NCBI GenBank assembly: GCA_030429765.1
Contig: JAUIER010000009.1
Coordinates: 49,941-113,940, forward strand
Length of the DNA: 64,000 nt
Source of the DNA: a bacterium
Lineage (GTDB): Bacteria > Omnitrophota > Gorgyraeia > Zapsychrales > Zapsychraceae
Direction: 5' to 3'
The notes under the pieces were generated by a model. That model searched no databases. It was not told the DNA's origin and saw only the letters and a list, made by a program, of their open reading frames with translations. This document shows, one piece after another, positions 13,353 through 64,000 of the stretch (the stretch's first letter is position 1; every line of letters begins with the position of its first letter). The position numbers and the translations under genes were made by a program.

Positions 13353-13447
13353 AATTATAGAATTGAACGGTGGATTATTGCGAAACAGTCAGTAAATCCG
13401 TCGGCAAGACTTCAACAAATAAGCATTTCAAAAATGGAGGAGATGTA

Positions 13448-14206: not shown

Positions 14207-14688
14207 TGCGCGTAATAGGGGTTGATCCCGGATCAAACGCGACCGGTTACGGAATCATCGAAGCGCAAAGCGGCAAGATCAAGATCCTGGAAATCGGCAC
14301 GATCGAGCCCAAAAAGTCGGACCCGCTACGATTTCGGATTCTCAAGATACATTCAATCCTTAAAAAATTGATCCAGCAGTATCATCCGGATGTCATGGTC
14401 CTGGAAAAACTTTACGCGCACCACAAGTATCCGGCCACAGCTGCGGTTATCGGTCATGCCCGGGGCGTGATTTGCCTGGCCAGCGCTGAGAGCAATATTG
14501 AGCTGGTTGAACACAGTGTTAAACGTATCCGGAAGGCCATAACCGGCAACGGAAACGCGACCAAACACCAGACACGCAGTGTGGTGGCGCACATTTTATC
14601 GATAGATGAATCCAAACTCACCCTTGATGCCAGCGACGCGCTGGCATTAAGTTTGGGGTACGCCTACATGGAAAACCTTCACAGATGA
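14206..14688 (+). CDS. ruvC: Crossover junction endodeoxyribonuclease RuvC
   Basis: The N-terminus is MRVIGVDPGSNATGYGIIE. Confidence 0.9.
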   Translation: MRVIGVDPGSNATGYGIIEAQSGKIKILEIGTIEPKKSDPLRFRILKIHSILKKLIQQYHPDVMVLEKLYAHHKYPATAAVIGHARGVICLASAESNIELVEHSVKRIRKAITGNGNATKHQTRSVVAHILSIDESKLTLDASDALALSLGYAYMENLHR

Positions 14689-16153: not shown

Positions 16154-17201
16154 TTACCGCAAAAAGATTGACGAGATTGATGCGAAGGTCATAAAGTTAC
16201 TAAACGAACGCGCCGAAATGAGTCAGGCGATCGGGGCGCGGAAGTTAAAAACGAATACCGGAATATACGCGCCAGCGCGTGAGAAGCAGGTTTTTGACAA
16301 TATCAAAAAACTTAACCAAGGGCCGATGAGTCAGGAGGCCTTTGAAGCGATTTACCGTGAGATCATGTCGAGCTCATTGGCTCTTGAGAAGTCATTGAAG
16401 ATCGCCTATCTCGGTCCGGAAGATTCGTATACCCATCTGGCATCGATCAAGAAGTTTGGTTCTCAAATTGATTACCAGCCATGTGACAGCATTTTGGATG
16501 TTTTCAAATGTGTTGAAAACGACGAATGTGAGTATGGCGTCGTTCCTATTGAAAATTCCACGGAAGGCGTTGTCACGCACACCATTGATATGCTGGTGGA
16601 CTCCGAACTAAAGATCTGCGCGCAGATCCTGATGAAGATTTCACATAATTTGATCTCCAAGACTACGCTGCGCCAGATCAAAAAAATCTACTCTAATTCA
16701 CAGGTTTTTGGTCAGTGCCGGCATTGGTTGCATAAGAATATGCCGGGGGTGGATTTGGTTCCGATTGAATCGACCAGCAAGGCGGCTCAAAAGGCCTCGA
16801 AGGAAAAAAATACAGCCGCGATATCGTCGTCGATGGCGGCCAAGACCTATGGCCTAAAGGTGCTCAAATCAAATATTCAGGATATCGCGCATAATGCGAC
16901 AAGATTTCTGGTGATCGCCAAGCAGGACGTGCCCGCGACGGGAAGCGATCGCACCACTATATTGTTTTCAATCAAAGATAAAGTCGGCGCATTGCATGGC
17001 ATGTTGACGCCGTTCTACAAAAATAAAATAAATTTAACCAAAATTGAGTCACGACCATCGAAAAAACGTGCATGGGATTATTATTTCTTTGTTGATTTTA
17101 ACGGACATCGTTCAGATAAGAATGTTAAATTAGCCTTAAGTCAGTTGGAAAACATGTGCAAGTATCTGAAGGTGGTCGGCTCGTATCCAAGTTTGGATTG
17201 A
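16140..17201 (+). CDS. pheA: Bifunctional chorismate mutase / prephenate dehydratase
   Basis: A chorismate mutase helix (IDEIDAKVIKLLNERAEMS), a PDT domain (IAYLGPEDSYTHLA), and a C-terminal ACT domain are present. The start is taken at the internal ATG 16140. The track ORF starts at 16110. Confidence 0.85.
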   Translation: MSLNSYRKKIDEIDAKVIKLLNERAEMSQAIGARKLKTNTGIYAPAREKQVFDNIKKLNQGPMSQEAFEAIYREIMSSSLALEKSLKIAYLGPEDSYTHLASIKKFGSQIDYQPCDSILDVFKCVENDECEYGVVPIENSTEGVVTHTIDMLVDSELKICAQILMKISHNLISKTTLRQIKKIYSNSQVFGQCRHWLHKNMPGVDLVPIESTSKAAQKASKEKNTAAISSSMAAKTYGLKVLKSNIQDIAHNATRFLVIAKQDVPATGSDRTTILFSIKDKVGALHGMLTPFYKNKINLTKIESRPSKKRAWDYYFFVDFNGHRSDKNVKLALSQLENMCKYLKVVGSYPSLD

Positions 17202-17202
17202 T

Positions 17203-18297
17203 ATGCGAGATTTAAGAAGTGTTGCCAAGCAGACGGTGCTTCAAGTTAAGCCGTATGTTCCGGGCAAGCCTATCGAAGAGGTCAAACGTGAGCTGAAACT
17301 TACGGATGTCATCAAGCTGGCTTCGAACGAAAACCCATACAAGCCCTCACCCCGAGTCCTTCAGGCGATTAAGTCGGCGTCTTTGCAGATTAACCGCTAT
17401 CCCGACGGAGGATGTCACTATCTGCGTGAAAAATTAGCTAAATTTTTAAAAGTCAGGCCGGAGCAGCTGGTTTTCGGAAACGGTTCGGATGAACTAATCG
17501 TCTTGGCGGTGCGGCTTTTTGTCGGTGACAAAGACGAGGTCGTGATGGCTCAGCCGTCATTTTTGGTATATTCCATCGCATCCAGTATTGCCGGCGCGCA
17601 GATCAAGAATGTTCCGCTTAAAGATTTTCATTATGATTTACCGGCGATGAAAAAGGCAATCACGAGCAGGACCCGTATCGTATTTTTGGGTAACCCGGAT
17701 AATCCCGCCGGAACTTATCTCAAGCAAAAAGACGTAGAGAGCTTTCTCGAGGGAATCCCGCAGGATGTTCTCGTCTTTATTGACGAAGCCTATTTTGAGT
17801 ATGTGCACGCCAGAGACTATGTCAATTCCATCCAGCTGTTAAAGAAATACAAGAATATTATAATTTCGCGGACATTCTCCAAGATGTACGGACTGGCCGG
17901 GCTGCGTGTCGGTTATGGGGTGTGCCATAAGGATCTCAGCGATTTGTTCAACCGGATTCGAGAGCCGTTCAATGTGAACTCTGTCGCCCAGGCGGCCGCG
18001 ATCGCTTGCCTTGAAGATCAGGATTACTATCGAGATATAGCTGAGAAGGTTGAGCGAGAACGGGCCTATCTCTATAAGAATTTTGAACGGCTGGGGTTGA
18101 ACTATCAGCCAAGCTGTACCAACTTTATTCTCCTTGATGTCGGACAGAATGGATCGGATGTGGTCAAGCGGCTGCTCAAGCGGGGCGTGATCGTCCGTGA
18201 CATGGGCTTTTGGGGAATGAATCAGCATATCCGCATTTCGATTGGGAAGAGGTCGGAAAATCGGCAGCTGATCAGCACATTGGAGCAGGTATTATGA
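17203..18297 (+). CDS. hisC: Histidinol-phosphate/aromatic aminotransferase (class II PLP aminotransferase)
   Basis: KLASNENPYKPSP is the HisC-family N-terminal motif, and the lysine region TFSKMYGLAGLRVGY is present. In an aromatic amino-acid operon it probably acts on phenylpyruvate/prephenate. Confidence 0.75.
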   Translation: MRDLRSVAKQTVLQVKPYVPGKPIEEVKRELKLTDVIKLASNENPYKPSPRVLQAIKSASLQINRYPDGGCHYLREKLAKFLKVRPEQLVFGNGSDELIVLAVRLFVGDKDEVVMAQPSFLVYSIASSIAGAQIKNVPLKDFHYDLPAMKKAITSRTRIVFLGNPDNPAGTYLKQKDVESFLEGIPQDVLVFIDEAYFEYVHARDYVNSIQLLKKYKNIIISRTFSKMYGLAGLRVGYGVCHKDLSDLFNRIREPFNVNSVAQAAAIACLEDQDYYRDIAEKVERERAYLYKNFERLGLNYQPSCTNFILLDVGQNGSDVVKRLLKRGVIVRDMGFWGMNQHIRISIGKRSENRQLISTLEQVL

Positions 18298-19310
18298 TCG
18301 TTGTTTTTAAGCCGGATGCAACACCGGATCAGATCAATCAAATCTTAACCAAAGCCGAACAACTTGGTCTCAAGACGAATGTGTCGGAGGGGGTCGAGCG
18401 GACCATTGTCGGATTAATTGGTCCCGAGGAAGTTTTACAGGTCACACCGCTGGAGGTTTTTGAAGGGGTTGAGCGGGTGATACCTGTTTTGGCGCCGTAC
18501 CGCTTGGTATCCCGCGAGTATCAGGCAGATAATTCGATCGTGAGCCTGTCGGATGACGTCAAGATCGGCGGTGAACAACTGCATGTGATGGCTGGGCCGT
18601 GTTCCATTGAGAGTCTTGACGGGATGGATCGAATCGCCAGACAGGCGCGCGAAGGCGGAGCAACGATTCTGCGCGGGGGCGCATTCAAGCCGCGTACGTC
18701 TCCGTATGATTTTCAGGGCATGGGCGAAGAGGGCTTGAAGATTCTCAAGGATGTCGGTGAGAAATATGGTATGGCGACCGTGACGGAGGTGATGGACGCA
18801 CGGGACATTGATTTGATTTGCCGGTACGCGGACATGCTGCAGATCGGCGCGAGAAATATGCAGAATTTCACATTGCTTAAGGAAGTCGGTAAGGCCAAGA
18901 AGCCCGTTTTGCTCAAGCGCGGGATCAGCGCGACGATCAAGGAATGGTTGATGTGCGCCGAGTATATTTTGGCCAATGGAAATTTTAATGTGGTCTTCTG
19001 CGAACGCGGTATTCGAACGTATGAAACAGCTACGCGCAACACGCTGGATATCAACGCGGTAGGCGTGGTCAAACAGCTGTCGCATTTGCCGATCATTGTC
19101 GATCCCAGTCATGCCACGGGACGGTGGGGCTTAGTGGCGCCGGCGGCGCGGGCGGCGGTAGCGGCCGGTTGTGACGGATTGATGATTGAGGTCCATGATA
19201 ATCCCAAAGAGGCATTTTCCGATGGGGGACAATCACTGGTGCCTGAGAAATTCAGTGCTTTAATGCAGGAATTAAGACCGATTGCACAGGCGGTCAACAG
19301 AAAATTATAA
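18294..19310 (+). CDS. aroF: 3-deoxy-7-phosphoheptulonate (DAHP) synthase, type I-beta with N-terminal regulatory (ACT/FL-like) domain
   Basis: The N-terminal regulatory domain reads MIVVFKPDATPDQINQIL. The catalytic domain reads AGPCSIES...FKPRTSPYDFQG (DAHPS/KDO8PS family). The ATG overlaps the hisC stop. Confidence 0.85.
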   Translation: MIVVFKPDATPDQINQILTKAEQLGLKTNVSEGVERTIVGLIGPEEVLQVTPLEVFEGVERVIPVLAPYRLVSREYQADNSIVSLSDDVKIGGEQLHVMAGPCSIESLDGMDRIARQAREGGATILRGGAFKPRTSPYDFQGMGEEGLKILKDVGEKYGMATVTEVMDARDIDLICRYADMLQIGARNMQNFTLLKEVGKAKKPVLLKRGISATIKEWLMCAEYILANGNFNVVFCERGIRTYETATRNTLDINAVGVVKQLSHLPIIVDPSHATGRWGLVAPAARAAVAAGCDGLMIEVHDNPKEAFSDGGQSLVPEKFSALMQELRPIAQAVNRKL

Positions 19311-19331
19311 CTTACAAACAAGCAGGTTGAT

Positions 19332-20219
19332 ATGATAGGGAAATCGAAATTTATCTTTAAGCGGGTCACGATTGTTGGTGTGGGGCTGATGGGCGGATCA
19401 TTGGGATTGGCGCTCAAAAAGAACAATGTAGCCAAGGAAGTAACAGGGTTATCTCACCGGAAGGCCTCATTAGAAAAGGCCAAAGAAATTGGAGCGATCG
19501 ATGTCGGACAGGCGGACGTGAAGAAGGCCGTTGAGAAGGCCGATTTGATCGTGTTGTCGACACCGGTCGATGATATTATCAAGCTTTTAAAAACCATCAG
19601 CCCGTACGTCAAGCGCGGGATGATCGTCACGGACGTTGGAAGTACCAAACAGGAAATTGTCGAGGCAGCCGAAGAAATTTTGCCGTACCCCGGAAACTTT
19701 GTCGGCAGTCATCCGTTGGTCGGTTCAGAGAAAAAAGGCGTTGCCAATGCCAAGGAAGACTTGTTTATCGATTCGCTGTGTGTCATGACACCGACGAATA
19801 AAACCAGTCAGATGAGCAAGGCCAAGGTTCAGCAGATGTGGAAACGTGTGGGAGCGGAGGTCAAGAATCTGAACCCCGCGGACCACGACGACAGTTTGGC
19901 CTATATCAGTCATCTGCCGCACCTGGTGGCTTACGGAGTGATGGAGGCCTTACCTGATAAATATTTGGAGCTGGCGACGCAGGGTTTACGTGACACCACA
20001 CGTATTGCCGCGTCTTCGCCGAAGATGTGGAATGATATTTGCATGTCTAATGTCAAGAATGTGGTCAAATCGTTGGATGAGCTTATTGCATGCATGTCCG
20101 AGTTGAGACTGGCCATTATTAACCGTGACGACAAGGTCCTAACCAAGCACTTTACCGTGGCCAAAGAGAAGCGGGACAAGATCGCCAAGGTTTCACATAA
20201 GGCCGAAGTCACAGAATGA
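19332..20219 (+). CDS. tyrA: Prephenate dehydrogenase
   Basis: A Rossmann motif VTIVGVGLMGGSLGLAL is followed by a PDH C-terminal domain. Confidence 0.8.
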   Translation: MIGKSKFIFKRVTIVGVGLMGGSLGLALKKNNVAKEVTGLSHRKASLEKAKEIGAIDVGQADVKKAVEKADLIVLSTPVDDIIKLLKTISPYVKRGMIVTDVGSTKQEIVEAAEEILPYPGNFVGSHPLVGSEKKGVANAKEDLFIDSLCVMTPTNKTSQMSKAKVQQMWKRVGAEVKNLNPADHDDSLAYISHLPHLVAYGVMEALPDKYLELATQGLRDTTRIAASSPKMWNDICMSNVKNVVKSLDELIACMSELRLAIINRDDKVLTKHFTVAKEKRDKIAKVSHKAEVTE

Positions 20220-51399: not shown

Positions 51400-52661
51400 A
51401 ATTTATAAAATCCATATGGTCCCGCTTATTTCTGGAAGAACGCTCATCGATGAGTTTGAGTGTGTTTCGTATGGCGGTGGCATTCACCGTCTTTGCGCAT
51501 GTGTTCCCGTCGCTGATGCATCCGCATGACAATTATTTGCCGACGGCCTTTCGCGAGTTTAATGCTAGTATTTTTCCGGTTTATATTCTTGAATGGGTGA
51601 TCCAGAGTCCGGCATGGGTTATTTATTTGTTCACCGGGCTGTTTTGCCTATTTTCATTTTGCTTTTTTGTAGGCTTTTTGTCGCAGTTCAGCGCAATTGC
51701 GACAATGATCTGCTGTTACTATTTTTACGCGCTTAACAGTTTTCACGTCGGGACATTATCATGGGATATCCTACTGGTGACATTGTTCCTGATGTGTCTG
51801 GTGCCGTATCATGGCGATTATTTTTCAGTCGACAGTTTTCTTAAGGGGAGGGAGGGGTGGAGGCGCAAACGTCCGTATTTTCTGCAGCGGTTGCTTCAGG
51901 TACAGATCGCGTTTACGTTTTTCTATACAGCATTATGGAAGATTTATCCTAAAGGTAATTGGCTTCAGGATAATCCGATTCACTATTTGATGAACATGCC
52001 CCCGCCGGGTGTAACCAAATGGTTTTTGTTGCGGGATGTGTTGCGCGATAAGCCGGAGATTTGTTATTGGATTGGTGTCGGTGTGATCGTCGCTGAATTC
52101 CTGATGCTGTTTTTGCTGTTTATCCGGCGGACCAGATCGTCCGCGATTTATGCCGGTATATTTTTTCATATCGTGCTGATCCTCACGCTCGATGTGCCGG
52201 CGACATTTTTCTTTTTATTTCCCGCGCAACTACTTTTATTTATCAATCCGGACCATTGGTTGGATTGGATTGAACAAAAGCGTGCGTATCATCGGTCGGC
52301 CAGCCGGCCCGTATTGCTTTATGACGGTGATTGTCGATTCTGCCGTTTTTGTGTAAAGCGGATTCAGATCATGGATATGTATGCCCGCTACCGCTATACA
52401 CCCTATCAATCGATTCCGCAGTTAGCGTCGATCCATCCATCCCTGACCCTCGCAATGTGCAGGCGTGAAGTGATTCTGGTTGAACCGTCTGGGAAAATTC
52501 GCGGCGGAATTGACGCGCTTCGCCGGATGAGCCTGAACCTTCCGATGATGTACCTATGGATTCCTCTGCTATATCTGCCCGGGATGGGCATTCTAGGATC
52601 CGCGATTTATCGAGTGATTGCCCGAAATCGTGGACGCATTCGCTTGCCGCAAATGTCCTAG
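51396..52661 (+). CDS. HTTM-domain (vitamin K-dependent gamma-carboxylase-like) membrane protein fused to DCC-family thiol-disulfide oxidoreductase (DUF393)
   Basis: The N-terminal HTTM-like TM region is LSVFRMAVAFTVFAHVF. The C-terminus LLYDGDCRFCRFCVKRI is the DCC CxxC motif. Confidence 0.65.
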   Translation: MKFIKSIWSRLFLEERSSMSLSVFRMAVAFTVFAHVFPSLMHPHDNYLPTAFREFNASIFPVYILEWVIQSPAWVIYLFTGLFCLFSFCFFVGFLSQFSAIATMICCYYFYALNSFHVGTLSWDILLVTLFLMCLVPYHGDYFSVDSFLKGREGWRRKRPYFLQRLLQVQIAFTFFYTALWKIYPKGNWLQDNPIHYLMNMPPPGVTKWFLLRDVLRDKPEICYWIGVGVIVAEFLMLFLLFIRRTRSSAIYAGIFFHIVLILTLDVPATFFFLFPAQLLLFINPDHWLDWIEQKRAYHRSASRPVLLYDGDCRFCRFCVKRIQIMDMYARYRYTPYQSIPQLASIHPSLTLAMCRREVILVEPSGKIRGGIDALRRMSLNLPMMYLWIPLLYLPGMGILGSAIYRVIARNRGRIRLPQMS

Positions 52662-52880
52662 TCTGTCCAACTGAGTCCTATTTAAAAAATCTTTTTAAAC
52701 TATTTATTTTTCAGGGACTTATACGAAAAAATCCACTCACCTCAATTTGCGTATTACTGCCCGAATAAGGCCTCGAATCAGCCATTTCAGTCCCCTCCAA
52801 ATGCTCAAAAATTAATCAAAAAAAATATTGCTAGACATACCGCTTTTGCTAGTATATGTAAGGTGGCACTTTAATATATA

Positions 52881-52946
52881 TAAGTAGACGGTTTATAAAT
52901 AGTTATAAGTAGACGGTTTATTATACATATTAAGTAGACGGTTTAT
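52881..52946 (+). repeat. Three direct copies of 16-nt TAAGTAGACGGTTTAT at 25-nt spacing
   Basis: Copies at 52881-52896, 52906-52921 and 52931-52946. They are related to the REP-like unit TAAGTAcatGGTAC. Confidence 0.6.
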
Positions 52947-53254
52947 AAATGACCAAAGGGGGAGGGAAGAGATCCCCCGGTCGGACATTGTATTTAAAGA
53001 GGACGGGGGGTCCTTAATCGTCGTCGGCACGACGCCATCCTGAGATCGACATTCCGAACCATGAGGGTGAAGACATTAGTTTCCACGCGCTAATCAAAAA
53101 TGACATAAGTCACATCCAATTCAGTTGCTTACGTCAATCACTTGTCCAGAAGCTCATCACTTTTTCTGTGATGGATGGATACAGTGATGCTTGCCAAGCA
53201 GGGCGTTTCATCAGCAACACAATTCCAGTCGGAACAACAGAATCCAAACAAAAA

Positions 53255-53425
53255 AAGAACCAGGTACGTATTTATAAATTAGTACACGGTACTTTAAATA
53301 ATTTAAGTAGATGGTTGAATAATATAAAAAGGTACCATCTTAAAGATATTAATAAAGTAGCATGCACTATAAATAATTATAGTACATGGAACTATAAAAT
53401 AAAAAGGTGCCATCTTAGGTAGCTC
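53255..53425. repeat. REP-like degenerate palindrome array upstream of rayT
   Basis: It contains AGTACACGGTACTT, TAAGTAGATGGTTGAAT, AAAGGTACCATCTTAAAG, TAGCATGCACTA, TAGTACATGGAACTA and AAAGGTGCCATCTTAGG. Confidence 0.5.
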
Positions 53426-54091
53426 ATGCCAAGAGCCAGTCGCATAACACAGGCAGGGGTATTACATCACGTCATCTCGAGAGGGAATGCCAATCAGGAC
53501 CTCTTTCGGGATATCGATGATAATCGCAAATACCTCGCGTTATTAAGAGAAGCTGTGAGTCAGTTTCCTTTATATGTCTACAATTATGCGCTGACTAAAA
53601 ATACGGTGCACCTGTTGGTAGAGCCCAAGCAGGACGGGATGCTTTCCAAGGCCATGGAGAGTGTCACCAGGGAGTATGCCAAATATTTCAATCAGAAATA
53701 CAATAGTATCGGACATGTGTTTGCCGGCCGATTCAAAAGTTTCGCGGTCCAACCGGACCAATTTTTCCTCGCCTGTAGTCGATATATCGACTTAAATCCA
53801 GTCAATCACGAACTTGTCAAAGAGGCCAAAGATTATAACTTCAGCGGATACGGTGTATTGGCCTTTGGACATGAGGGAGAGTACGCCGTTGATCAGCATG
53901 ATTTGTATAAGGCCTTGGGCGGAACGGATCATGATCGTCAGTTGGTATACCGCAGTTTAGTGCATCAGTATCTGGGCGCGGAATTAGATTTGGAGAATCG
54001 AAAGAGCGGAATCCTTGGATCTAAAGAGTTTAAGACGCTGGTAAAAAGCGGAGCCAATGTCAAAGATGTCAAGTTTAAGAAAGGTTTATAA
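53426..54091 (+). CDS. REP-associated tyrosine transposase (RAYT; IS200/IS605-like Y1 HUH transposase)
   Basis: HHVISRGNANQDLF...YLALL is followed by the HUH motif (NTVHLLVEP) and a catalytic Tyr region RFKSFAVQPDQFFLACSRYIDLNPV. Confidence 0.8.
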   Translation: MPRASRITQAGVLHHVISRGNANQDLFRDIDDNRKYLALLREAVSQFPLYVYNYALTKNTVHLLVEPKQDGMLSKAMESVTREYAKYFNQKYNSIGHVFAGRFKSFAVQPDQFFLACSRYIDLNPVNHELVKEAKDYNFSGYGVLAFGHEGEYAVDQHDLYKALGGTDHDRQLVYRSLVHQYLGAELDLENRKSGILGSKEFKTLVKSGANVKDVKFKKGL

Positions 54092-54345
54092 GGTGGCACC
54101 TTTATTACAAAAAGAACGTGGTACAAATAATATATTAAGTGCATGGTACTTAAAAATGCATAAGTACATGGTACATAATATACAAATAGTGCATGGTACT
54201 TTAATATCAAAAAGTAGTAGGTACATTAAATGCATAAAAGTACATGCTACTAAAATATTTATAAGAACCTGGTTCTTAAAACACTGTAAGAACCTGGTAC
54301 TTATTATCAATATAGAACATGGTACTAAAATACAGAAAAGTAGCC
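54091..54345. repeat. REP-like degenerate palindrome array downstream of rayT (at least 12 units)
   Basis: It contains AAGGTGGCACCTTTATT, ACGTGGTAC, AGTGCATGGTACTTA, TAAGTACATGGTACATA, TAGTGCATGGTACTTTA, AAGTACATGCTACTA, TAAGAACCTGGTTCTTA, TAAGAACCTGGTACTTA and TAGAACATGGTACTA. Confidence 0.55.
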
Positions 54346-54442
54346 TCTTTGTTAAATCATCCTTTGAATCTGTTTCTAGGCGTTTTAGGACCATATGGGC
54401 CAATGAGTTTCAAGGTTGTATGTTCCAACAAAGGATCGGCAG

Positions 54443-57400
54443 TTGTTAAAGCGTAAGTCTAAAATTTGGTTGATAAGGTTGCTCGCCATTCTATGGATGG
54501 GTGTCGCTTCCTTATATATGTCGACGGCGGCATTTGCCCAGTTAGACATAGAGGCCATTTTTGACACGAACGATGGAACCAGCGGTTTCGATATGCAGGA
54601 TGTGGACAACACCACACAGGTCTTTATCGATTCAGACGGTAATATCGTGACACGTGGATGCGTGCGTCTGGACAGCGGCTTAACGGAATGTACTGATTCT
54701 GAGACATTGATTGTCGATGGAACGTTGGGAGTCGGAGTGGTTGCCCCGGCTACAGTATTCCACGTGGATTCCAATGCGGGAGCCGCCACGCCGATCATGA
54801 CGGTTGAAAACACGGTCGGCGACTTCCAGGTTCATATCTTTAGCGGAAGCCCGGAAAGCAATGTGATCGGTTCGCCGGGGGATCTGTGTGTCGATCCGGC
54901 TGGTGGTATGGTCTACATCAAATCTGCCGGGGCCGGAACCAATACGGGTTGGACCGAAGTTGCAACGGGTGGAGGTATGCCGCAATGGACACAGACCGGA
55001 ACGGTCGTTCATCCGAACACGATGTCGGATGATGTGGCTATCGGCGGGACCAGTGAGGCCACGGCCGAGGTGTTCTTCCGAAACGATGGTCAAACAGTAT
55101 TTAATGAACAAGGGCGCGCGGTGAGTTTCCGCATCGAAGGTGACAATGTTCCGAACCTATTTGTGGTCAATGGAACGCTTGACCGTATCGGTATCGGAAC
55201 CTCAACGCCGGATGCGGCGGCGATCCTGGATCTGTCCGCCACCAATGCGGCCTTACGCTTAACACGTTTGAGCGATCCATCCACCGACATCGCCGTACCG
55301 CGCAACGGTATGATCGTCTATGATTCGACGGATGCTGAACTCCAGGCGTATGTCGGCGGAAGTTGGATTATGTTGGCGGCCGGCGGTATGATCGATATTT
55401 CGTCGGATACCAATCTAACCGCCGGTTTTGGAATTACGCTTACGGGCGATACCGTCAGTGTCACCGACCTGTATGTTCAAACAGCTGGCGATTCAATGCA
55501 GGGATCGCTGCAGTTTGTCGGGGTTGGATCAGACATTACCACCGGTACCGGTGAAGATTTAGCCTTGATGCCGGATTCGGGTCGGGTTGGTATTGGTGTT
55601 ACAGCGCCGGATGCCGGAGCGATTCTTGATTTGAGCGCGACGGATAAAGCCCTTCGCCTGACACGATTGAGTGATCCAGCGACGGACATCGCCGTGCCTC
55701 GAAACGGTATGATCGTATACGACTCGACGGATGCCGAACTGCAAGCCTATGTCGGCGGCAGTTGGGTGATGTTGGCTGAGGGCGGCATGATTGACATTTC
55801 ATCCGATACCAACTTGACGGCTGGATTTGGAATCACCATCACCGGTGACACGATTAGTGTGACAGACCTGTATGTTCAAACCGCCGGTGATTCGATGCAG
55901 GGATCATTGCAGTTTGTCGGGGTGGGATCAGACATTACGACCGGTACCGGAGAAGATTTAGCGTTGATGCCGGATTCAGGGCGGGTCGGTATTGGTGTTA
56001 CAGCGCCGGATGCCGGGGCCATTCTTGATTTGAGCGCGACAGACAAAGCCCTTCGCTTAACACGCTTAAGTGATCCATCCACCGACATCGCTGTCCCACG
56101 CAACGGTATGATCGTCTATGACTCGACCGATGCCGAGCTGCAAGCCTATGTCGGCGGCAGTTGGGTGATGCTGGCTGAAGGCGGCATGATCGACATTTCA
56201 TCTGATACCAACCTGACGGCCGGATTTGGTATCACGATTACCGGTGATACGGTGAGCGTCACGGATCTGTACGTGCAAACGGCAGGCGATTCAATGCAGG
56301 GAACCTTGCAGTTTGTGGGTGTGGCAACCGATATCACAACAGCTGCAGGTGAAGATCTAACATTACAACCAGGAACGGGCGGTGACGTTGTTGTGTCACA
56401 ATCTCGACTGGGCGTTGGAACGAGCACGCCGGGTGTCAGTACTATTCTTGATTTAAGTGCGACCGATCGCGCGCTACGTGTCACACGCTTGAGTGATCCT
56501 TCCACCGATATCGTGACACCGCGCAACGGTATGATCGTCTATGACTCGACGGATGCTGAACTGCAAGCCTATGTGGGCGGCAGTTGGGTGATGCTGGCGG
56601 AAGGCGGTATGATTGATATTTCTTCCGATACCAACTTGACCGCCGGATTCGGTATCACGATTACCGGAGATACGGTGAGCGTGACTGACCTATATCTACA
56701 AACCGCCGGTGATTCAATGCAGGGATCGCTTGAATTTGCGGGTGTCGCAACGGATATCATAACCTCTGCCGGTGAAGACTTGACGTTGCAGCCTGGAACC
56801 GGGGGTGACGTCGTTGTATCACAATCACGTTTAGGTGTAGGAACGAGCACGCCGGGTGTCAGTACTATTCTTGATTTAAGTGCGACCGATCGCGCGCTAC
56901 GTGTCACACGCCTGAGTGATCCGACGACCGATGTCGCGACACCGCGTAATGGTATGATCGCCTACGACTCAACGGATAATGAACTCATGGCGTATATCAA
57001 CGGATCATGGCAGATGCTGGCAGAAGGCGGCATGATCGATATTTCATCTGATACCAACTTGACGGCCGGATTCGGTATCACGATTACGGGAGATACCGTC
57101 AGCGTCACGGATCTATATGTTCAGACCGCGGGTGATTCAATGCAGGGATCATTGCAATTCGTGGGCGTTGGTTCTGACATTACGACAGGCACCGGTGAGG
57201 ATCTGGCCTTGATGCCGGGTTCGGGTCGGGTCGGTATTGGCGTCACAGCGCCGGACGCCGGGGCCATTCTTGATTTGAGCGCGACAGACAAAGCCCTTCG
57301 CCTGACACGCCTGAGCGATCCATCCACCGACATCGCTGTCCCACGAAACGGTATGATCGTCTATGACTCAACCGATGCCGAGCTGCAAGCTTATGTGGGC

Positions 57401-60400
57401 GGCAGCTGGGTGATGCTGGCAGAAGGTGGCATGATCGACATTTCATCTGATACCAACTTGACGGCCGGATTCGGTATCACGATTACCGGTGATACCGTGA
57501 GCGTCACAGATCTATATGTGCAAACAGCGGGCGATTCGATGCAGGGATCATTACAGTTTGTCGGAGTGGCAACCGATATCACGACAGCCGCGGGTGAAGA
57601 TCTGACCTTACAACCGGGCGCCGGCGGTGACGTTGTTGTATCCCAATCTCGACTGGGCGTTGGAACGAGCACGCCGGGTGTCAGTACAATTTTAGATTTG
57701 AGCGCGAGTGATCGGGCGCTACGGGTTACGCGACTCACTGATCCAGCGGCGAACATTGCGACACCACGCAATGGTATGATCGCGTACGATTCATCTGATA
57801 ACGAACTGCAGGCGTATGTCAATGGATCATGGGTGATGTTGGCCGAAGGCGGCATGATCGATATTTCTTCCGATACCAATTTGACCGCTGGATTCGGTAT
57901 CACTATCACGGGCGACACAGTGAGCGTGACGGATCTGTATGTTCAAACGGCCGGGGATTCAATGCAGGGATCCTTGCAGTTTGTCGGAGTGGCAACCGAT
58001 ATCACGACGGCCGCGGGTGAAGATCTGACCTTGCAACCGGGTGCCGGGGGTGACGTCGTTGTGTCACAATCCCGTTTAGGTGTTGGAACCAGCACGCCGG
58101 ATGTGAGTACCATACTTGACTTGAGCGCGACTGATCGCGCGCTGCGTGTCACTCGATTAAGTGATCCATCGACGGATATCGCGACACCGCGTAACGGTAT
58201 GATCGTCTACGACTCGACCGATGCCGAACTGCAAGCGTATGTGGGTGGTAGTTGGGTGATGCTCGCTGAGGGCGGCATGATCGATATCTCCGATGACACC
58301 AACCTAACGGCTGGATTCGGCATCACCATCACGGGTGATACGATCAGCGTGACGGATCTCTACCTACAAACAGCCGGTGATTCCATGAGCGGGACATTGC
58401 AGATGGCGCAATTGTCAGATCCGACCATGACGTTCACACCATCCGGTGCGGATACAGATTTCTGGATCGGCGTACAGGACAATAACAATAATACCAATGA
58501 TGATTCCTTCCAAATCGGCGCGGGAAGTACGGCCGGTTCTAATTCTTATTTCGCGATTACATCCGACGGGACAATCGATATTAGCGGCGCGACGCTACTC
58601 AAACTACCGGCGTCGGCTTCTCCGGTATTGCCAACATCGGCAGGTGAGGTTGTGCTGGATCTTAACGCCCTAAGCGGAACAACCGGACAAGGATTGCTGA
58701 CGGTCTCCGATGGTCGACAGCAAACGTATGTTGTAGCGACAGATACACTCCCGCCGGCCGACGGACGAATACCAAAATACGACGCGGCCAGCGGTACGAT
58801 TCAGTGGTTGCCGGATAACGATACCGGCTTCCCGGCATGGGATTCTATCCAGGATGCCTCCGGACAGGGAACAATTGATTATCTGACATTCTCGCAACGC
58901 ATTGAAACCAGTATTACCGACGGTACGGGCGGTATCGGTCTTGAATTGCGATCGACGGATCTGGGTGTCGGTACGTCGGATGTGGTCTTGTTAGATCTGC
59001 AGGCGCAGCAGAATGATGATCCGAACTTTGTTCCATTACGTATTCGGGACGACATCGGCGGAACAGCGGATACGCTGGTTGAAGTGGATTATCAAGGTAG
59101 TATCTTGACGGAAGGTACGTTGCGGGTTGCGGCGGATGCGGACCCATCCATCACCTTTGAACCATCGGGTGGCGACACGAATTTCTGGTTAGGCGTTCAG
59201 GATGATGCAGGCGGAGATGACGATGATGTCTTCCAAATCGGTGAAGGTACCGTCGGTGGTAATATTTACTTGACCGTTGATTCCAACGGACGTATTGGGG
59301 TTGGAACATCAACGCCGGCGCTCAGTTCATTGCTAGACCTATCCGCCACAGATGCGGCACTGCGTATCACACGCGTTAGTGATCCATCCGTTAACATTGC
59401 GACACCGCGTAACGGTATGATCGTCTATGATTCGACCGACAATGAACTTCAAGCCTATATTAATGGAAGCTGGGTGATGCTGGCCGAAGGCGGCATGATT
59501 GATATCTCTGATGATACCAACTTGACGGCAGGTTTTGGTATTACGATCACAGGCGACACGGTGAGCGTGACAGATCTATATGTTCAATCCGCGGGTGATT
59601 CGATGAGCGGATCATTGCAATTCGTCGGAGTTGATTCAGATATCACCACGGGTACAGGTGAAGATCTGGCCTTGATGCCGGATTCAGGACGTGTCGGTGT
59701 TGGAACGACATCACCGGATGCCGGTGCGATTCTTGATCTAAGCGCGACGGACAAAGCGCTTCGGTTAACTCGTCTAAGTGATCCTTCAACAGATATCGCC
59801 GTTCCACGCAATGGTATGATTGTCTACGATTCGACGGATGCGGAACTGCAAGCGTATGTGGGTGGTAGTTGGGTAATGCTGGCTGAAGGGGGCATGATCG
59901 ATATCTCCGATGATACCAACTTGACGGCTGGATTCGGTATCACGATTACCGGCGACACGGTCAGTGTCACAGATTTATATGTTCAGACAGCCGGTGATTC
60001 GATGACAGGATCATTGCAATTCGTCGGGGTGGCCAGTGACATCATCACGGCCACGGGTGAAGATCTGACCTTGCGACCGGGAACCGGCGGTGATGTGGTT
60101 GTCGCCCAATCGCGTTTGGGTGTCGGAACCAGCACACCGGGTGTGAGTACGATTCTTGATTTGAGCGCGACGGACCGCGCGCTACGCGTCACACGCTTGA
60201 GTGATCCGACCACCGACGTGGTAACGCCGCGTAATGGTATGATCGCCTATGACTCAACGGATAATGAATTGATGGCGTACATCAACGGATCATGGCAGAT
60301 GCTGGCTGAAGGCGGCATGATCGATATCTCTGATGATACGAACTTGACGGCCGGCTTTGGTATTACGATCACAGGCGACACGGTGAGCGTGACCGATCTA

Positions 60401-63400
60401 TATGTTCAGACAGCCGGAGATTCGATGAGCGGATCATTACAGTTTGTCGGGGTTGATTCGGATATCACCACCGGAACCGGTGAAGATTTGGCGTTGATGC
60501 CGGATTCAGGACGTGTCGGTGTTGGAACGACATCGCCGGATGCCGGAGCGATTCTTGATCTAAGTGCGACGGACAAAGCGCTTCGGTTAACTCGTCTGAG
60601 TGATCCTTCAACAGACATCGCCGTTCCACGTAACGGTATGATCGTCTATGACTCGACGGACGCGGAACTGCAAGCGTATGTGGGTGGTAGTTGGGTAATG
60701 CTGGCTGAAGGGGGCATGATCGATATCTCTGACGATACCAACTTGACGGCAGGTTTTGGTATTACGATTACAGGTGATACGGTGAGTGTCACAGATTTAT
60801 ATGTTCAGACAGCCGGTGATTCGATGACAGGATCATTGCAATTCGTCGGGGTGGCCAGTGACATCATCACGGCCACGGGTGAAGATCTGACCTTGCGACC
60901 GGGAACGGGCGGTGATGTGGTTGTCGCCCAATCGCGCTTGGGTGTCGGAACCAGCACACCGGGTGTGAGTACGATCCTTGATTTGAGCGCCGCGGACCGC
61001 GCGTTACGCGTCACCCGGCTCACAGATCCGTCGGCCAATATTGCCACACCGCTGAACGGTATGATCGCCTACGATTCAACAGACGATGAATTACAAGCGT
61101 ATGTCAACGGATCATGGGTGATGCTGGCCGAAGGCGGCATGATCGATATCTCCGATGATACCAACTTGACGGCAGGTTTTGGTATTACGATCACTGGTGA
61201 CACCGTGAGCGTGACCGATCTTTATGTTCAAACCGCGGGTGATTCGATGACAGGATCATTGCAGTTCGTCGGGGTGGCCAGTGACATCATCACGGCCGCA
61301 GGTGAAGATCTGACCTTACGACCGGGAACCGGCGGTGATGTGGTTGTCGCGCAATCGCGCTTGGGTGTCGGAACCAGCACGCCGGGCGTGAGTACGATCC
61401 TTGATTTGAGCGCCGCGGACCGAGCGTTACGCGTCACACGGCTCACAGATCCATCGGCCAATATTGCCACACCGCTGAATGGTATGATCGCCTATGATTC
61501 AACAGACAATGAATTACAAGCATATGTCAACGGATCATGGGTGATGCTGGCTGAAGGTGGAATGATCGATATCTCAGATGATACGAATTTGACAGCTGGA
61601 TTTGGTATCACCATTACAGGTGATACGATCAGTGTCACGGATCTGTATGTTCAAACAGCCGGTGATTCGATGACCGGTACATTACAATTCGTCGGTGTCA
61701 CAAATGATATCACCACCGCGACGGGCGAGGATTTGACATTACGTCCGGGAACCGGCGGTGATGTGGTGATTAGTCAGGGGACATTGACCTTCGACGGTGT
61801 GACGACTGATATCGCGACATCAGCCGGTGAAGATCTCACCATTCAGCCGGGAACCGGCGGTGATGTGATTGTGTCGCAATCGCGATTGGGTGTTGGTACA
61901 ACCGCGCCGGATGTAAGTACCATTTTGGATCTAAGCGCGACGGACCGAGCGCTACGCGTCACGCGATTGACTGATCCGTCCGCCAACATTGCCACACCAC
62001 GCAACGGTATGATCGTCTATGACTCTACGGACAACGAATTACAGGCGTATGTCAACGGATCATGGGTGATGCTGGCTGAGGGTGGCATGATCGACATCTC
62101 CGATGATACCAACTTGACGGCAGGTTTTGGTATTACGATCACGGGTGACACGGTAAGCGTTACGGATCTGTATGTTCAAACCGCCGGTGATTCGATGAGC
62201 GGATCATTACAGTTTGTCGGCGTTGATTCCGATATCACAACCGGCACAGGTGAAGATTTGGCCTTAATGCCGGATTCAGGTCGAGTGGGTGTTGGAACGA
62301 CATCACCGGATGCGGGAGCTATTCTTGACTTAAGTGCAACAGACAAGGCGCTTCGGTTAACTCGTCTGAGTGATCCTTCAACAGACATCGCGGTTCCACG
62401 TAACGGTATGATCGTCTATGACTCGACGGATGCGGAACTGCAAGCGTATGTGGGCGGCAGTTGGGTGATGCTGGCCGAAGGCGGCATGATCGATATCTCC
62501 GACGACACCAACCTCACGGCTGGCTTTGGTATTACGATTACCGGTGACACGGTCAGCGTCACGGATCTGTATGTTCAAACCGCCGGTGATTCGATGAGCG
62601 GCACGTTGCAGATGGCGCAATTGACTGATCCGTCGATCACCTTTACGCCGGACGGGGCCGACAGTGACTTCTGGGTAGGTGTTCAAGACAATGATAACGC
62701 TGCGAATGACGATGTCTTCCAGATCGGCGCCGGCAGCACTCCGGGCACCAATGCCTACTTCGCGATAACCACGGACGGAACCATCGACCTAAGCGGTTCA
62801 ACACTCGTTAAATTACCAAGCGGACCAACACCGGTGCTTCCACTGTCAGCGGGTGAAATTGTGCTTGATACCAATTTCTACTCCGCCAATCAGGGGGCGC
62901 TTCGACTATTTGATGGAACACAAGAAGCTCATGTCGTCAGTGTGACAGGCGGTCTTCCGGGTGATCAATTTGTTCCAAAATATTCATCGGGTACCGGTCT
63001 CATCACATGGCAAGCTGATGCGGATAGCGGGGCGCCGGCTTGGAATGCGATACTGGATGCGTCGGCTGTGGGAACAATTGACTTCAGGACATTTGAACAA
63101 CGCTTGGAAACCAGTATTACCGACGGTGTCGGCGGAACGGGATTGACATTGCGCGCGACAGATTTGGGAGTCGGTACCAGTGACGTGATTATGCTTGATA
63201 TCGACGCGTCGGCCGATGATGATCCAAACTTCATTCCATTGCGGATCACCGACAACACGAGTGCAGAGACTCTAATGGAGGTAGACTATCAAGGTAGTAT
63301 TCTCACCGAAGGAACCATCCGTGTGGCCGCGGACGCGGATCCGACCGTAACGTTTGAGCCGTCAGCCGGAGATACCAACTTCTGGTTGGGTGTTCAGGAT

Positions 63401-64000
63401 GATGCCGGTGGTGACGATGACGATCTCTTCCAGATTGGAGAAGGTGCGGCCGGCGGAAATGTTTATCTGACCATCGATTCAAATGGTCGTATCGGGGTCG
63501 GGACGACCGCGCCAGGTGCGAGTACCTTGCTGGATCTGTCCGCAACCGACGCGGCGCTTCGTATTACCCGCGTGAGCGATCCATCGGTCAACATCGCTTC
63601 GCCGCAGAACGGTATGATCGTTTATGATTCAACCGATAATGAATTGCAGGCCTACATTGGCGGCAGTTGGGTGATGCTGGCCGAAGGCGGTATGATTGAT
63701 ATCTCTGACGATACAAACTTGACGGCCGGATTTGGTATTACCTTGACCGGTGACACGGTGAGCGTGACGGATCTGTATGTTCAAACCGCCGGTGATTCGA
63801 TGAGTGGTTCACTACAATTTGTGGGCGTTGACTCGGATATCACCACCGGAACGGGTGAAGATCTGGCCTTGATGCCGGATTCAGGTCGAGTGGGTGTTGG
63901 TACGACATCACCGGATGCCGGAGCGATTCTTGATCTAAGTGCAACGGACAAAGCGCTTCGCCTGACACGCTTAAGTGATCCTTCAATAGACATTGCCGTC
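54443..64000 (+). CDS. Giant secreted tandem-repeat protein (putative surface/adhesin-like), 5' complete and 3' truncated by window end (more than 3180 aa in window)
   Basis: The frame (position = 2 mod 3) is open from the stop at 54404-54406 to nt 64000 with no stop. The predicted start is TTG 54443 with AAAGGA upstream. The signal peptide is KRKSKIWLIRLLAILWMGVASLYMSTAAFA|Q. A unique N-domain follows, then repeats. The gene is absent from the ORF track because it has no stop. Confidence 0.85.
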   Translation, partial: MLKRKSKIWLIRLLAILWMGVASLYMSTAAFAQLDIEAIFDTNDGTSGFDMQDVDNTTQVFIDSDGNIVTRGCVRLDSGLTECTDSETLIVDGTLGVGVVAPATVFHVDSNAGAATPIMTVENTVGDFQVHIFSGSPESNVIGSPGDLCVDPAGGMVYIKSAGAGTNTGWTEVATGGGMPQWTQTGTVVHPNTMSDDVAIGGTSEATAEVFFRNDGQTVFNEQGRAVSFRIEGDNVPNLFVVNGTLDRIGIGTSTPDAAAILDLSATNAALRLTRLSDPSTDIAVPRNGMIVYDSTDAELQAYVGGSWIMLAAGGMIDISSDTNLTAGFGITLTGDTVSVTDLYVQTAGDSMQGSLQFVGVGSDITTGTGEDLALMPDSGRVGIGVTAPDAGAILDLSATDKALRLTRLSDPATDIAVPRNGMIVYDSTDAELQAYVGGSWVMLAEGGMIDISSDTNLTAGFGITITGDTISVTDLYVQTAGDSMQGSLQFVGVGSDITTGTGEDLALMPDSGRVGIGVTAPDAGAILDLSATDKALRLTRLSDPSTDIAVPRNGMIVYDSTDAELQAYVGGSWVMLAEGGMIDISSDTNLTAGFGITITGDTVSVTDLYVQTAGDSMQGTLQFVGVATDITTAAGEDLTLQPGTGGDVVVSQSRLGVGTSTPGVSTILDLSATDRALRVTRLSDPSTDIVTPRNGMIVYDSTDAELQAYVGGSWVMLAEGGMIDISSDTNLTAGFGITITGDTVSVTDLYLQTAGDSMQGSLEFAGVATDIITSAGEDLTLQPGTGGDVVVSQSRLGVGTSTPGVSTILDLSATDRALRVTRLSDPTTDVATPRNGMIAYDSTDNELMAYINGSWQMLAEGGMIDISSDTNLTAGFGITITGDTVSVTDLYVQTAGDSMQGSLQFVGVGSDITTGTGEDLALMPGSGRVGIGVTAPDAGAILDLSATDKALRLTRLSDPSTDIAVPRNGMIVYDSTDAELQAYVGGSWVMLAEGGMIDISSDTNLTAGFGITITGDTVSVTDLYVQTAGDSMQGSLQFVGVATDITTAAGEDLTLQPGAGGDVVVSQSRLGVGTSTPGVSTILDLSASDRALRVTRLTDPAANIATPRNGMIAYDSSDNELQAYVNGSWVMLAEGGMIDISSDTNLTAGFGITITGDTVSVTDLYVQTAGDSMQGSLQFVGVATDITTAAGEDLTLQPGAGGDVVVSQSRLGVGTSTPDVSTILDLSATDRALRVTRLSDPSTDIATPRNGMIVYDSTDAELQAYVGGSWVMLAEGGMIDISDDTNLTAGFGITITGDTISVTDLYLQTAGDSMSGTLQMAQLSDPTMTFTPSGADTDFWIGVQDNNNNTNDDSFQIGAGSTAGSNSYFAITSDGTIDISGATLLKLPASASPVLPTSAGEVVLDLNALSGTTGQGLLTVSDGRQQTYVVATDTLPPADGRIPKYDAASGTIQWLPDNDTGFPAWDSIQDASGQGTIDYLTFSQRIETSITDGTGGIGLELRSTDLGVGTSDVVLLDLQAQQNDDPNFVPLRIRDDIGGTADTLVEVDYQGSILTEGTLRVAADADPSITFEPSGGDTNFWLGVQDDAGGDDDDVFQIGEGTVGGNIYLTVDSNGRIGVGTSTPALSSLLDLSATDAALRITRVSDPSVNIATPRNGMIVYDSTDNELQAYINGSWVMLAEGGMIDISDDTNLTAGFGITITGDTVSVTDLYVQSAGDSMSGSLQFVGVDSDITTGTGEDLALMPDSGRVGVGTTSPDAGAILDLSATDKALRLTRLSDPSTDIAVPRNGMIVYDSTDAELQAYVGGSWVMLAEGGMIDISDDTNLTAGFGITITGDTVSVTDLYVQTAGDSMTGSLQFVGVASDIITATGEDLTLRPGTGGDVVVAQSRLGVGTSTPGVSTILDLSATDRALRVTRLSDPTTDVVTPRNGMIAYDSTDNELMAYINGSWQMLAEGGMIDISDDTNLTAGFGITITGDTVSVTDLYVQTAGDSMSGSLQFVGVDSDITTGTGEDLALMPDSGRVGVGTTSPDAGAILDLSATDKALRLTRLSDPSTDIAVPRNGMIVYDSTDAELQAYVGGSWVMLAEGGMIDISDDTNLTAGFGITITGDTVSVTDLYVQTAGDSMTGSLQFVGVASDIITATGEDLTLRPGTGGDVVVAQSRLGVGTSTPGVSTILDLSAADRALRVTRLTDPSANIATPLNGMIAYDSTDDELQAYVNGSWVMLAEGGMIDISDDTNLTAGFGITITGDTVSVTDLYVQTAGDSMTGSLQFVGVASDIITAAGEDLTLRPGTGGDVVVAQSRLGVGTSTPGVSTILDLSAADRALRVTRLTDPSANIATPLNGMIAYDSTDNELQAYVNGSWVMLAEGGMIDISDDTNLTAGFGITITGDTISVTDLYVQTAGDSMTGTLQFVGVTNDITTATGEDLTLRPGTGGDVVISQGTLTFDGVTTDIATSAGEDLTIQPGTGGDVIVSQSRLGVGTTAPDVSTILDLSATDRALRVTRLTDPSANIATPRNGMIVYDSTDNELQAYVNGSWVMLAEGGMIDISDDTNLTAGFGITITGDTVSVTDLYVQTAGDSMSGSLQFVGVDSDITTGTGEDLALMPDSGRVGVGTTSPDAGAILDLSATDKALRLTRLSDPSTDIAVPRNGMIVYDSTDAELQAYVGGSWVMLAEGGMIDISDDTNLTAGFGITITGDTVSVTDLYVQTAGDSMSGTLQMAQLTDPSITFTPDGADSDFWVGVQDNDNAANDDVFQIGAGSTPGTNAYFAITTDGTIDLSGSTLVKLPSGPTPVLPLSAGEIVLDTNFYSANQGALRLFDGTQEAHVVSVTGGLPGDQFVPKYSSGTGLITWQADADSGAPAWNAILDASAVGTIDFRTFEQRLETSITDGVGGTGLTLRATDLGVGTSDVIMLDIDASADDDPNFIPLRITDNTSAETLMEVDYQGSILTEGTIRVAADADPTVTFEPSAGDTNFWLGVQDDAGGDDDDLFQIGEGAAGGNVYLTIDSNGRIGVGTTAPGASTLLDLSATDAALRITRVSDPSVNIASPQNGMIVYDSTDNELQAYIGGSWVMLAEGGMIDISDDTNLTAGFGITLTGDTVSVTDLYVQTAGDSMSGSLQFVGVDSDITTGTGEDLALMPDSGRVGVGTTSPDAGAILDLSATDKALRLTRLSDPSIDIAV
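55180..64000 (+). repeat. In-frame tandem coding repeats: 399-nt (133-aa) and 423-nt (141-aa) units, 822-nt dimers, and a 4209-nt higher-order super-repeat
   Basis: DLYVQTAGDSMQGSLQFVG recurs at 55471, 55870 and 56269 (a 399-nt period), then at 56691 (a 423-nt period). The large module MSGTLQMAQLSDP... recurs at 58401 and 62610 (4209 nt = 1403 codons). Near-identical units lie 822 nt apart. Confidence 0.9.

Follow-up and report, generated by a model that had tools for sequence, protein, structure and literature searches.

The question raised by the locus described here is whether a transposase-like gene and the short repeats around it form a working mobile element with its cognate palindromes, or whether gene and repeats have together been put to another use. 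The locus lies in a 64 000-nt stretch of DNA (the window; contig JAUIER010000009.1 of assembly GCA_030429765.1) from a member of the Omnitrophota, family Zapsychraceae, in which a Y1 transposase-derived gene, accompanied by three arrays of short repeats, stands directly upstream of a giant gene for a secreted repeat protein. The first-pass annotation had read this as the classical arrangement of a REP-associated tyrosine transposase (RAYT) with its repetitive extragenic palindromic (REP) sequences. As a classical, active system it was not supported: the HuH motif is degenerate throughout the clade, the protein misses the NCBIfam cut-off, the arrays are ancient and the repeat units are confined to the locus in the DNA examined. 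The interpretation that we consider on balance probable is that of a domesticated, catalytically dead protein of the TIRYT/RAYT type (TIRYT being a Y1 transposase flanked by terminal inverted repeats, TIRs, and a relative of the RAYTs) which, with amplified cognate sites, would act in cis on the operon of the giant gene.

The open reading frame (ORF) at 53426–54091 was annotated from the start as having the Y1 fold, and its product matched Pfam Y1_Tnp with 35.1 bits (cut-off 23). Against NCBIfam the top match was the REP_Tyr_transpos equivalog with 48.9 bits, under the 80-bit cut-off. An AlphaFold model built with 83 homologs as input reached a pLDDT of 91.5, and its comparison with known structures using Foldseek gave as top match 4er8_A (E 2e-7, TMt 0.76), the structure of E. 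coli TnpA-REP with a bound REP hairpin; the next matches were the TnpA proteins of IS608, ISDra2 and IS200, with TMt values of about 0.6. The predicted catalytic-tyrosine region SRYIDLNPV was found, with Y120 in the class-2 signature Y---NP. Because TnpA-REP tops the structural matches with IS608, ISDra2 and IS200 TnpA behind it, the placement of the protein as RAYT-like rather than IS200 proper holds, and the Y---NP motif, the N-terminal HHVISRGN and the C-terminal extension agree with it. The REP-type affiliation is less well supported: by sequence and flank anatomy the nearest known relatives are TIRYT/TIRtron elements (subclass 2.1), which are described as not REP-associated. The Y1 protein is 32–41 % identical over its full length to NHVH/YIELNP proteins of subclass-2.1 type (E 1e-37 to 1e-46), a kinship judged by the family description in PMC6006769. 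TnpA-Y1 subclass 2.1 (Quentin et al., 2018; PMC6006769) corresponds to the TIRYT group (Di Nocera et al., 2013; PMC3733652) and to the Group 1 RAYTs of Bertels; GGGGWSAS is the consensus of the TIRs on either side of its members (PMC6006769; PMC3733652).

The sequence TVHLLVEP, initially taken for an HUH motif, reads T60-V-H62, the first His being missing. In an alignment of 120 Y1 homologs, an intact HuH was present in none of the 27 proteins with at least 58 % identity to the query, which have T, A, M, Q, Y or F at the position of the first His. The second His is replaced by Q or N in five of these proteins, the Asn of Y---NP is missing in 15, and the Tyr is missing in three (P0013, P0022 and P0023) as well as in the fragment P0054. 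Relatives with 54 % identity or less almost all retain NH[VIL]H, Y and N. A neighbour-joining tree placed the degenerate proteins in one clade of 25, nested among HUH-intact proteins of Omnitrophota type, and P0058 (motif C-V-Q), which falls outside that clade, represents a separate and independent loss of HuH. The occurrence of chemically diverse residues at position 60 argues that this position is no longer a metal ligand in the degenerate clade.

Loss of HuH is what would be expected of a dying transposase, and the locus might thus be a decaying, functionless remnant of an insertion element that lies upstream of the giant gene by chance. This is hardly credible in view of its conservation. 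In seven loci of the clade (the window and L211, L001, L003, L209, L005 and L208) the gene order is the same, namely Memo/AMMECR1, a gene of ~170–215 codons, HTTM/DCC1, a gap of ~600–775 nt, Y1 and the giant gene, and the Y1 ORF is intact in all relatives. Identity of the Y1 protein across the six orthologous loci was 89, 81, 77, 73, 64 and 66 %, compared with 39–77 % for PEPCK, DsbA, Memo/AMMECR1 and HTTM across the same loci; in L211, for instance, the values were 89 % for Y1, 77 % for PEPCK, 67 % for HTTM and 62 % for Memo. Y1 thus ranked first in conservation within its neighbourhood at five of the six loci, whereas at L005 PEPCK (69 %) exceeded it (64 %). Judged from these comparisons, the Y1 protein is under strong purifying selection. 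Conservation extends to the cores of the sites, to their register and to the promoter. The Y1 genes of HUH-intact sister loci likewise lie directly upstream of very large genes.

The repeats comprise about 22 units (4 + 7 + 11 in arrays 1, 2 and 3), in keeping with the at least 20 copies first noted on both flanks, and the variants named at that stage (GAACCTGGTTC, AAGGTGGCACCTT, GCATGC and GGTACCATC) are all present. The consensus AAGTRCATGGTACTT, with up to three mismatches, gave 13 matches compared with 1.6 expected, a number reached in none of 100 shuffles, and 12 of the 13 fall within 53255–54327, confirming that the units cluster around the Y1 gene. Their spacing, given earlier as 17–25 nt, is instead a strict 25-nt start-to-start register (range 23–26 nt); a three-unit pattern at 25-nt spacing had three matches in the window and none in 100 shuffles. 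The four units counted for array 1 (52859–52947) include the first type-B unit. Those of array 2 start at 53254, 53279, 53304, 53329, 53354, 53379 and 53404, and those that follow the type-B unit of array 3 start at 54111, 54136, 54161, 54186, 54211, 54237, 54262, 54287, 54312 and 54337. Array-3 units are in the same orientation across the orthologous loci almost without exception (39 + versus 1 −).

Two types of unit could be distinguished. The logo of type A, derived from 24 units of four genomes, is wAAG-W-A-S-a-T-G-G-T-A-C-w-w, with a near-invariant right half, GGTAC, and a left half, GWAS, that varies without compensation; GTAG occurs in a subset of units, within the left arm. Type B (AAGGTGGCACCTT / AAGGTGCCATCTT) occupies three fixed places, at the start of array 1, just before the Y1 ATG and over the Y1 stop codon. 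The type-B units on either side of the ORF, AAAGGTGCCATCTTA (53403–53417) and TAAGGTGGCACCTTT (54089–54103), are complementary at 14 of 15 positions (93 %), and the TAA stop of Y1 sits inside the latter. The description of the units as palindromes stands for the consensus, but not for a maintained stem: arm pairing in 69 units was 68.3 %, versus 66.8 % in shuffles, and 70 of 500 shuffles equalled or exceeded the observed value. Since pairing is no better than column composition provides, the palindromy resides in the consensus and does not reflect a hairpin that is maintained, and a signal consisting of hairpin structure only was rejected, there being no covariation beyond column composition. 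A methylation switch at GTAC was also considered and found weak, as GTAC is not avoided elsewhere (observed/expected 0.93) and is scarce in the arrays of L001.

Phylogenetic footprinting against L211 showed the promoter and the first type-B unit to be nearly identical, and the unit cores to be kept whilst the spacers were randomized. The arrays are positionally orthologous in genomes whose housekeeping proteins are merely 45–77 % identical, and this, with cores kept and spacers free despite such deep divergence, marks them as ancient rather than as recently copied REPs. The number of units in array 3 is 11 in both the window and L211 and ranges from 4 to 11 among lineages. That range, the non-homology of the interval between arrays 1 and 2, and the retention of H62, Y120 and N124 in the window protein could be taken to indicate that a non-canonical catalytic centre of a single His and the Tyr still carries out local single-strand DNA transactions, causing phase or cassette variation ahead of the giant gene, for example by expansion and contraction of the units or by exchange of the variable stretch. 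We regard this as quite unlikely, given that position 60 is occupied by chemically unrelated residues, that members without both His, or without Tyr, still have arrays (as in L209, where both His are lost) and that the window and L211, though deeply diverged, have equal numbers of units; furthermore, neutral decay under frame constraint accounts for the unalignable stretch.

Whether the units are dispersed in the manner of REPs was addressed with a 17-nt position weight matrix, counting matches of at least 14 bits. The Y1 intergenic zones contained 73 units in 11 loci, versus three matches in the remaining ~175 kb. The rest of the window (62 kb) had none, and the three found in the orthologous flanks (~113 kb) are about the chance level. 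On ~175 kb of Omnitrophota DNA, rather than whole genomes, this argues against a REP-like density of units.

These results bear directly on the proposal that the locus is an active REPtron, in which a working RAYT nicks and copies the flanking palindromes and the local cluster reflects multiplication before genome-wide spread. In its favour are the RAYT-like fold and Y---NP motif, the repeats of palindromic consensus, partly with GTAG, on both flanks, and a precedent in the Marinomonas REPtrons Ma and Mb, where REPs concentrated beside tnpA-REP have been read as recent local multiplication (PMC8266576). The clustering of repeats near the gene is common to both cases, as would be, for RAYTs and REPtrons in general, a domesticated, apparently single-copy, vertically inherited Y1 gene flanked by cognate short palindromic repeats. 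However, the Marinomonas REPs multiplied recently whereas the present arrays are old and positionally orthologous, and the correspondence of unit positions and number (11 versus 11) between the window and L211, in which housekeeping proteins are only 62–77 % identical, indicates that there has been no recent copying. The RAYTs of E. coli and Pseudomonas keep HuH and Tyr, and their REPs are cleaved and dispersed in hundreds, whereas here the catalytic motif is degenerate clade-wide, with Asn and Tyr often lost too, and copies do not exceed chance in the other ~175 kb. Unlike REPs, the units are shorter, A/T-rich, tandemly phased and without maintained stems. REPs have a stem-loop palindrome with a 5′ GT[AG]G tetranucleotide; here GTAG is contained in a subset of the units, inside the left arm. 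The degenerate motif, the positional orthology of the units, their confinement in the DNA examined and the missed NCBIfam RAYT cut-off together make an active REPtron very unlikely.

An exact three-unit scan of a genome collection returned at least 119 stretches, with no Omnitrophota record among the matches listed; the taxa represented among these were Rossellomorea, Streptomyces and other unrelated groups. The pattern G-N5-GGTAC, in three units at 25-nt spacing, matched many loci of Rossellomorea, Bacillus and Lysinibacillus (L009–L127; e.g. L013, L014, L032, L070 and L080), in many cases on either strand and with several occurrences in one genome, which suggests that Rossellomorea and related Bacillaceae harbour an unrelated family of palindromic phased repeats.

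The origin of the units was sought in more distant relatives. The outgroup consisted of distant HUH-intact relatives from a metagenome scan with protein alignment, among the matches listed, and encodes proteins of 227–237 amino acids with intact HUH, YIELNP and 32–41 % identity to the window protein. The upstream flanks of these genes carry two or three direct copies of a motif (GGGGTCAG, GGGACAGAG, AAAAGGTGTCA) and the downstream flanks carry inverted copies, with the stop codon embedded in the first one, an anatomy shared by the type-B units of the present locus; AAAAGGTGTCA in L197 resembles AAAAGGTGCCA of the window locus. The HUH-intact sister loci of Omnitrophota type (L006, L128 and L210) have just one to three type-A/B units per side, with a type-B unit inside the promoter spacer, between −35 and −10. 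Of the 86 loci compared, only those of the dead clade had tandem 25-nt arrays. Because of the TIR anatomy of the outgroup, the small number of units in the HUH-intact sisters and the restriction of arrays to the dead clade, the units are best explained as having arisen by amplification of the terminal repeats of the element itself, and thus appear to derive from the TIRs of TIRYT-type relatives. Terminal repeats are the sequences that a Y1 transposase recognizes.

The likeness to TIRYTs/TIRtrons extends to the Y1 fold, the YI(D/E)LNP motif, a length of ~220–240 residues with a C-terminal tail, low copy number and the bracketing of the gene by TIRs, of which the 3′ repeat overlaps the stop codon. 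TIRYT terminal repeats occur in two or three copies per side, exactly the arrangement seen in the outgroup. Unlike TIRYTs, in all of which HuH and Tyr are reported to be conserved (PMC3733652), the present protein has lost HuH. The repeats are amplified to 4 + 7 + 11 units in strict 25-nt register, the position before the giant gene is fixed and apparently vertically inherited, and the consensus is AAGWACNTGGTAC and AAGGTGSCA rather than GGGGWSAS. The C-terminal HTH-like domain of TIRYTs (Bac_DnaA_C / HTH_23 / HTH_28) was not matched by Pfam here, and residues 130–221 gave no Pfam match even at E values up to 10.

How gene and arrays might relate to the giant gene is indicated by the conserved region upstream of them. 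The predicted promoter consists of an A-rich, UP-like tract (52806–52826), a −35 element TTGCTA (52828–52833) and a −10 element TAGTAT (52850–52855), separated by a 16-nt spacer with TG at 52847–52848, and a few bases lie between its end and the first type-B unit. Window and L211 agree almost 100 % over this promoter, which is also kept in L001, L003 and L209 (TTG invariant) and is diverged yet recognizable in L005 and L208; a score of 8/12 explains its absence from a simple promoter-scan listing. No terminator-like site was found on the + strand between the Y1 stop and the giant gene. In L208 (6630) and L210 (2173) the very large gene overlaps the Y1 stop, without array 3 between them, and Y1 and the large gene can thus be translationally adjacent. 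On the strength of the conserved promoter, the lack of a terminator-like site and these overlaps, co-transcription of Y1 and the giant gene is likely. The first-pass annotation had assigned the array at 54091–54442 to the upstream or leader region of the giant gene, and the downstream array does fall there. The start of the giant gene is most likely TTG 54443, a start also kept in L211; there is little conservation between array 3 and this codon.

Two of the arrays are traversed by open frames. The frame of the upstream ORF is open through array 2 and a further 46–80 codons of non-homologous sequence in all seven loci, with per-locus shuffle P values of 0.001–0.02 and a Fisher's combined P of 2e-9 (~1e-6 allowing for the choice of frame). 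It ends in the last type-B unit (...KRCHLN-stop), the stop overlapping the Y1 ATG (TAATG) in L001 and L003 and lying 3 nt before it in the window and L211. The reading as an N-terminal extension in frame with Y1 was rejected, since the frame relation varies between loci, as was a conserved small protein encoded in the variable stretch, where there is no nucleotide similarity and tblastx similarity is array-encoded only. The ORF looks like a translated leader, its peptides being unalignable outside the array, with selection acting on openness of the frame alone and not on its sequence, and it probably couples translation of Y1 to its own. A second ORF (54057–54449, + strand, 130 codons) runs through array 3, its TAA stop overlapping the second codon of the giant gene; the openness of this frame had P values of 0.001 in the window (spacer-only shuffles), 0.0003 in L211 and 0.007 in L209, and L003 lacks such an open frame. 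A search of the protein database found no relatives of the encoded peptide.

The open frames are also among the grounds for supposing that the arrays act at the level of RNA or translation, through mRNA structure, stability or processing or through ribosome-coupled protection from premature termination, independently of Y1, whose conserved function would then lie elsewhere. The arrays lie downstream of the conserved promoter, the frame through array 2 ends at the Y1 start, and array 3, besides being open in three loci and having its units on the same strand, folds better than shuffles (z about −4). We nevertheless consider this explanation unlikely. Hairpins show no compensatory covariation, an Rfam search of 52600–54500 returned a single chance miRNA match and no family, and the array-3 frame is closed in L003; moreover, the units descend from the terminal repeats of the transposase and co-occur with Y1 in every locus, and a strict register of 25 nt in which the spacers vary freely is what one would more usually see in phased protein sites.

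In the domestication scenario that we prefer, the ancestor would have been a TIR-flanked Y1 transposase that lost DNA cleavage and was kept as a sequence-specific nucleic-acid-binding protein, whilst its former TIRs gave rise by multiplication to three phased arrays, in which binding sites with a core of 15–17 nt, separated by A/T spacers, recur every 25 nt. The promoter, the operator-like unit at +1, array 1, the leader ORF with array 2, Y1, array 3 and the giant gene would form one transcription unit, and the Y1 protein would coat the arrays cooperatively, setting the expression of its own gene and that of the giant gene. Binding of the units by Y1, transcription from the conserved promoter with read-through, and regulation of the giant gene are inferred.

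Several observations weigh against this scenario or limit it. The window protein retains H62, Y120 and N124, so that residual or altered catalysis may be possible, and the C-terminal 90 residues match no known DNA-binding domain in Pfam. A protein other than Y1 could bind the units. The downstream array is dispensable, as L208 and L210 go without it. Double-stranded DNA, single-stranded DNA or RNA could each be the target that is recognized; that compensatory changes are lacking speaks against a signal made up of a hairpin alone, while the same-strand orientation and transcribed position of array 3 would also fit recognition of RNA or of a single strand.

The last point allows a more specific version, which we rate as decidedly unlikely, in which Y1 retains its grip on single-stranded DNA and, like a loading system of the RfaH/ops type, is loaded on the non-template strand as RNA polymerase opens the same-strand arrays, rendering transcription sufficiently processive for a giant gene of tens of kilobases to be completed. 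The leader ORF would then supply ribosome coupling against premature termination. If true, giant genes would have a dedicated device for processivity or anti-termination that derives from a transposase.

With regard to other known systems, the protein shares with IS200/IS605 TnpA the HUH-Y1 fold and repeat elements in subterminal position on both sides of the gene, but differs in having Y---NP rather than Y---Q, 221 rather than ~150 residues, a degenerate HuH, no tnpB partner and no sign of multiple copies. Functional parallels may be found in unrelated families. The TnpB-derived TldR proteins are mobile-element nucleases that are without catalysis and are retained as site-specific binders beside the gene that they control, and in plasmid iterons and the sopC/parS centromeres tandem sites recur at even distances, the cores being conserved and the spacers free, as is typical of cooperative protein coating. 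The analogy would be functional only: the proteins belong to unrelated families, a guide RNA is not evident, and genes for partition or replication do not occur nearby. A literature search for a catalytically inactive derivative of a Y1 transposase or RAYT found nothing comparable.

Table 1. Coordinates of the predicted features of the Y1 locus in the window
Feature	Position	Strand	Remarks
Sigma-70-type promoter	52806..52855	+	Predicted from conservation
Type-B palindromic unit TAAGGTGGCACTTTA	52859..52873	+	Spans the predicted transcription start, operator-like position; same place in 7/7 loci
Array 1, three units TAAGTAGACGGTTTATA	52881..52947	+	Exact 25-nt period; cores kept and spacers diverged versus L211
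G-rich motif AAAGGGGGAGGG	52955..52966	+	Directly after array 1; G-run here in 7/7 loci
Variable stretch, ~290 nt	52967..53253	+	Unalignable even with the closest relative (Y1 89 % identical); open in one + frame
Upstream ORF, stop to stop	53018..53422	+	First starts GTG 53168 and ATG 53171; through array 2; ends with TAG
Array 2, seven units	53254..53420	+	25-nt register, mixed orientation; last unit AAAGGTGCCATCTTA, kept in all loci
Y1 (RAYT/TIRYT-like) transposase-derived gene	53426..54091	+	221 residues; degenerate HuH T60-V-H62, Y120, N124
Array 3, type-B unit TAAGGTGGCACCTTT over the stop codon, then ten units	54088..54353	+	All in + orientation
Giant secreted repeat protein gene	54443..64000, beyond the window end	+	TTG start after AAAGGA; signal peptide; QLDIEAIFD module

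The gene downstream of Y1 has a signal peptide and a QLDIEAIFD-type module at its N-terminus wherever these are detectable, and is very large or cut by the contig end in nine of ten loci of Omnitrophota type; its orthologues contain PTL_trimer/DUF2793 domains. The contigs of L001 and L005 end inside the giant gene, and in L003 (GCA_020632495.1) the region 10863–20141 holds a PTL_trimer gene of 1136 codons followed by several short PTL_trimer fragments, with no single giant ORF. In either case the repeats seem to disrupt both assemblies and gene calls. Two published accounts of the giant genes of Omnitrophota contain no mention of this Y1 gene or its repeats. The independent HuH loss in P0058 is accompanied, in its locus L008, by three ACCAGG-containing units at a period of ~25 nt upstream (9880–9960) and by simple CACATTGT and CATAC repeats downstream (10750–10860), ahead of a 218-codon gene that shares the N-terminal module of the giant gene.

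Concerning the remainder of the neighbourhood, the gene of ~170–215 codons, which has 214 in the window, had no Pfam match. No second copy of Y1 was found in the window or in any recovered locus, the Y1 protein clusters contained one to three contigs each, and an exact look-up of the window Y1 protein sequence found no entry on record. PADLOC gave no matches to defence systems for Y1, the N-terminus of the giant gene or the neighbouring genes, and a tRNA scan detected no tRNA near the locus. A phage origin was discarded, as there were no viral relatives; five pattern matches lay in viral contigs.

In the outgroup, gltB (1558–1593 codons) lies directly downstream of Y1, and co-oriented with it, in 10 of the 27 loci with enough downstream sequence (L136, L145, L149, L150, L152, L167, L169, L171, L173 and L194; Pfam-confirmed in three). 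The paper describing subclass 2.1 (PMC6006769) makes no mention of this fixed position before a long gene. These gltB-linked, HUH-intact relatives hint that promoter-proximal domestication is perhaps general for this subclass.

RAYTs and their relatives are the textbook domesticated transposases of bacteria. To our knowledge, all described members retain the catalytic residues, whereas here a whole clade is without HuH and yet evolves more slowly than central metabolic enzymes in most loci. On the evidence of these comparisons, the locus would provide a concrete and testable case in which a Y1 transposase has become a factor that acts in cis without catalysis. Giant genes characterize the Omnitrophota, and the Y1 gene with its arrays is a first candidate for a regulatory element of these genes.

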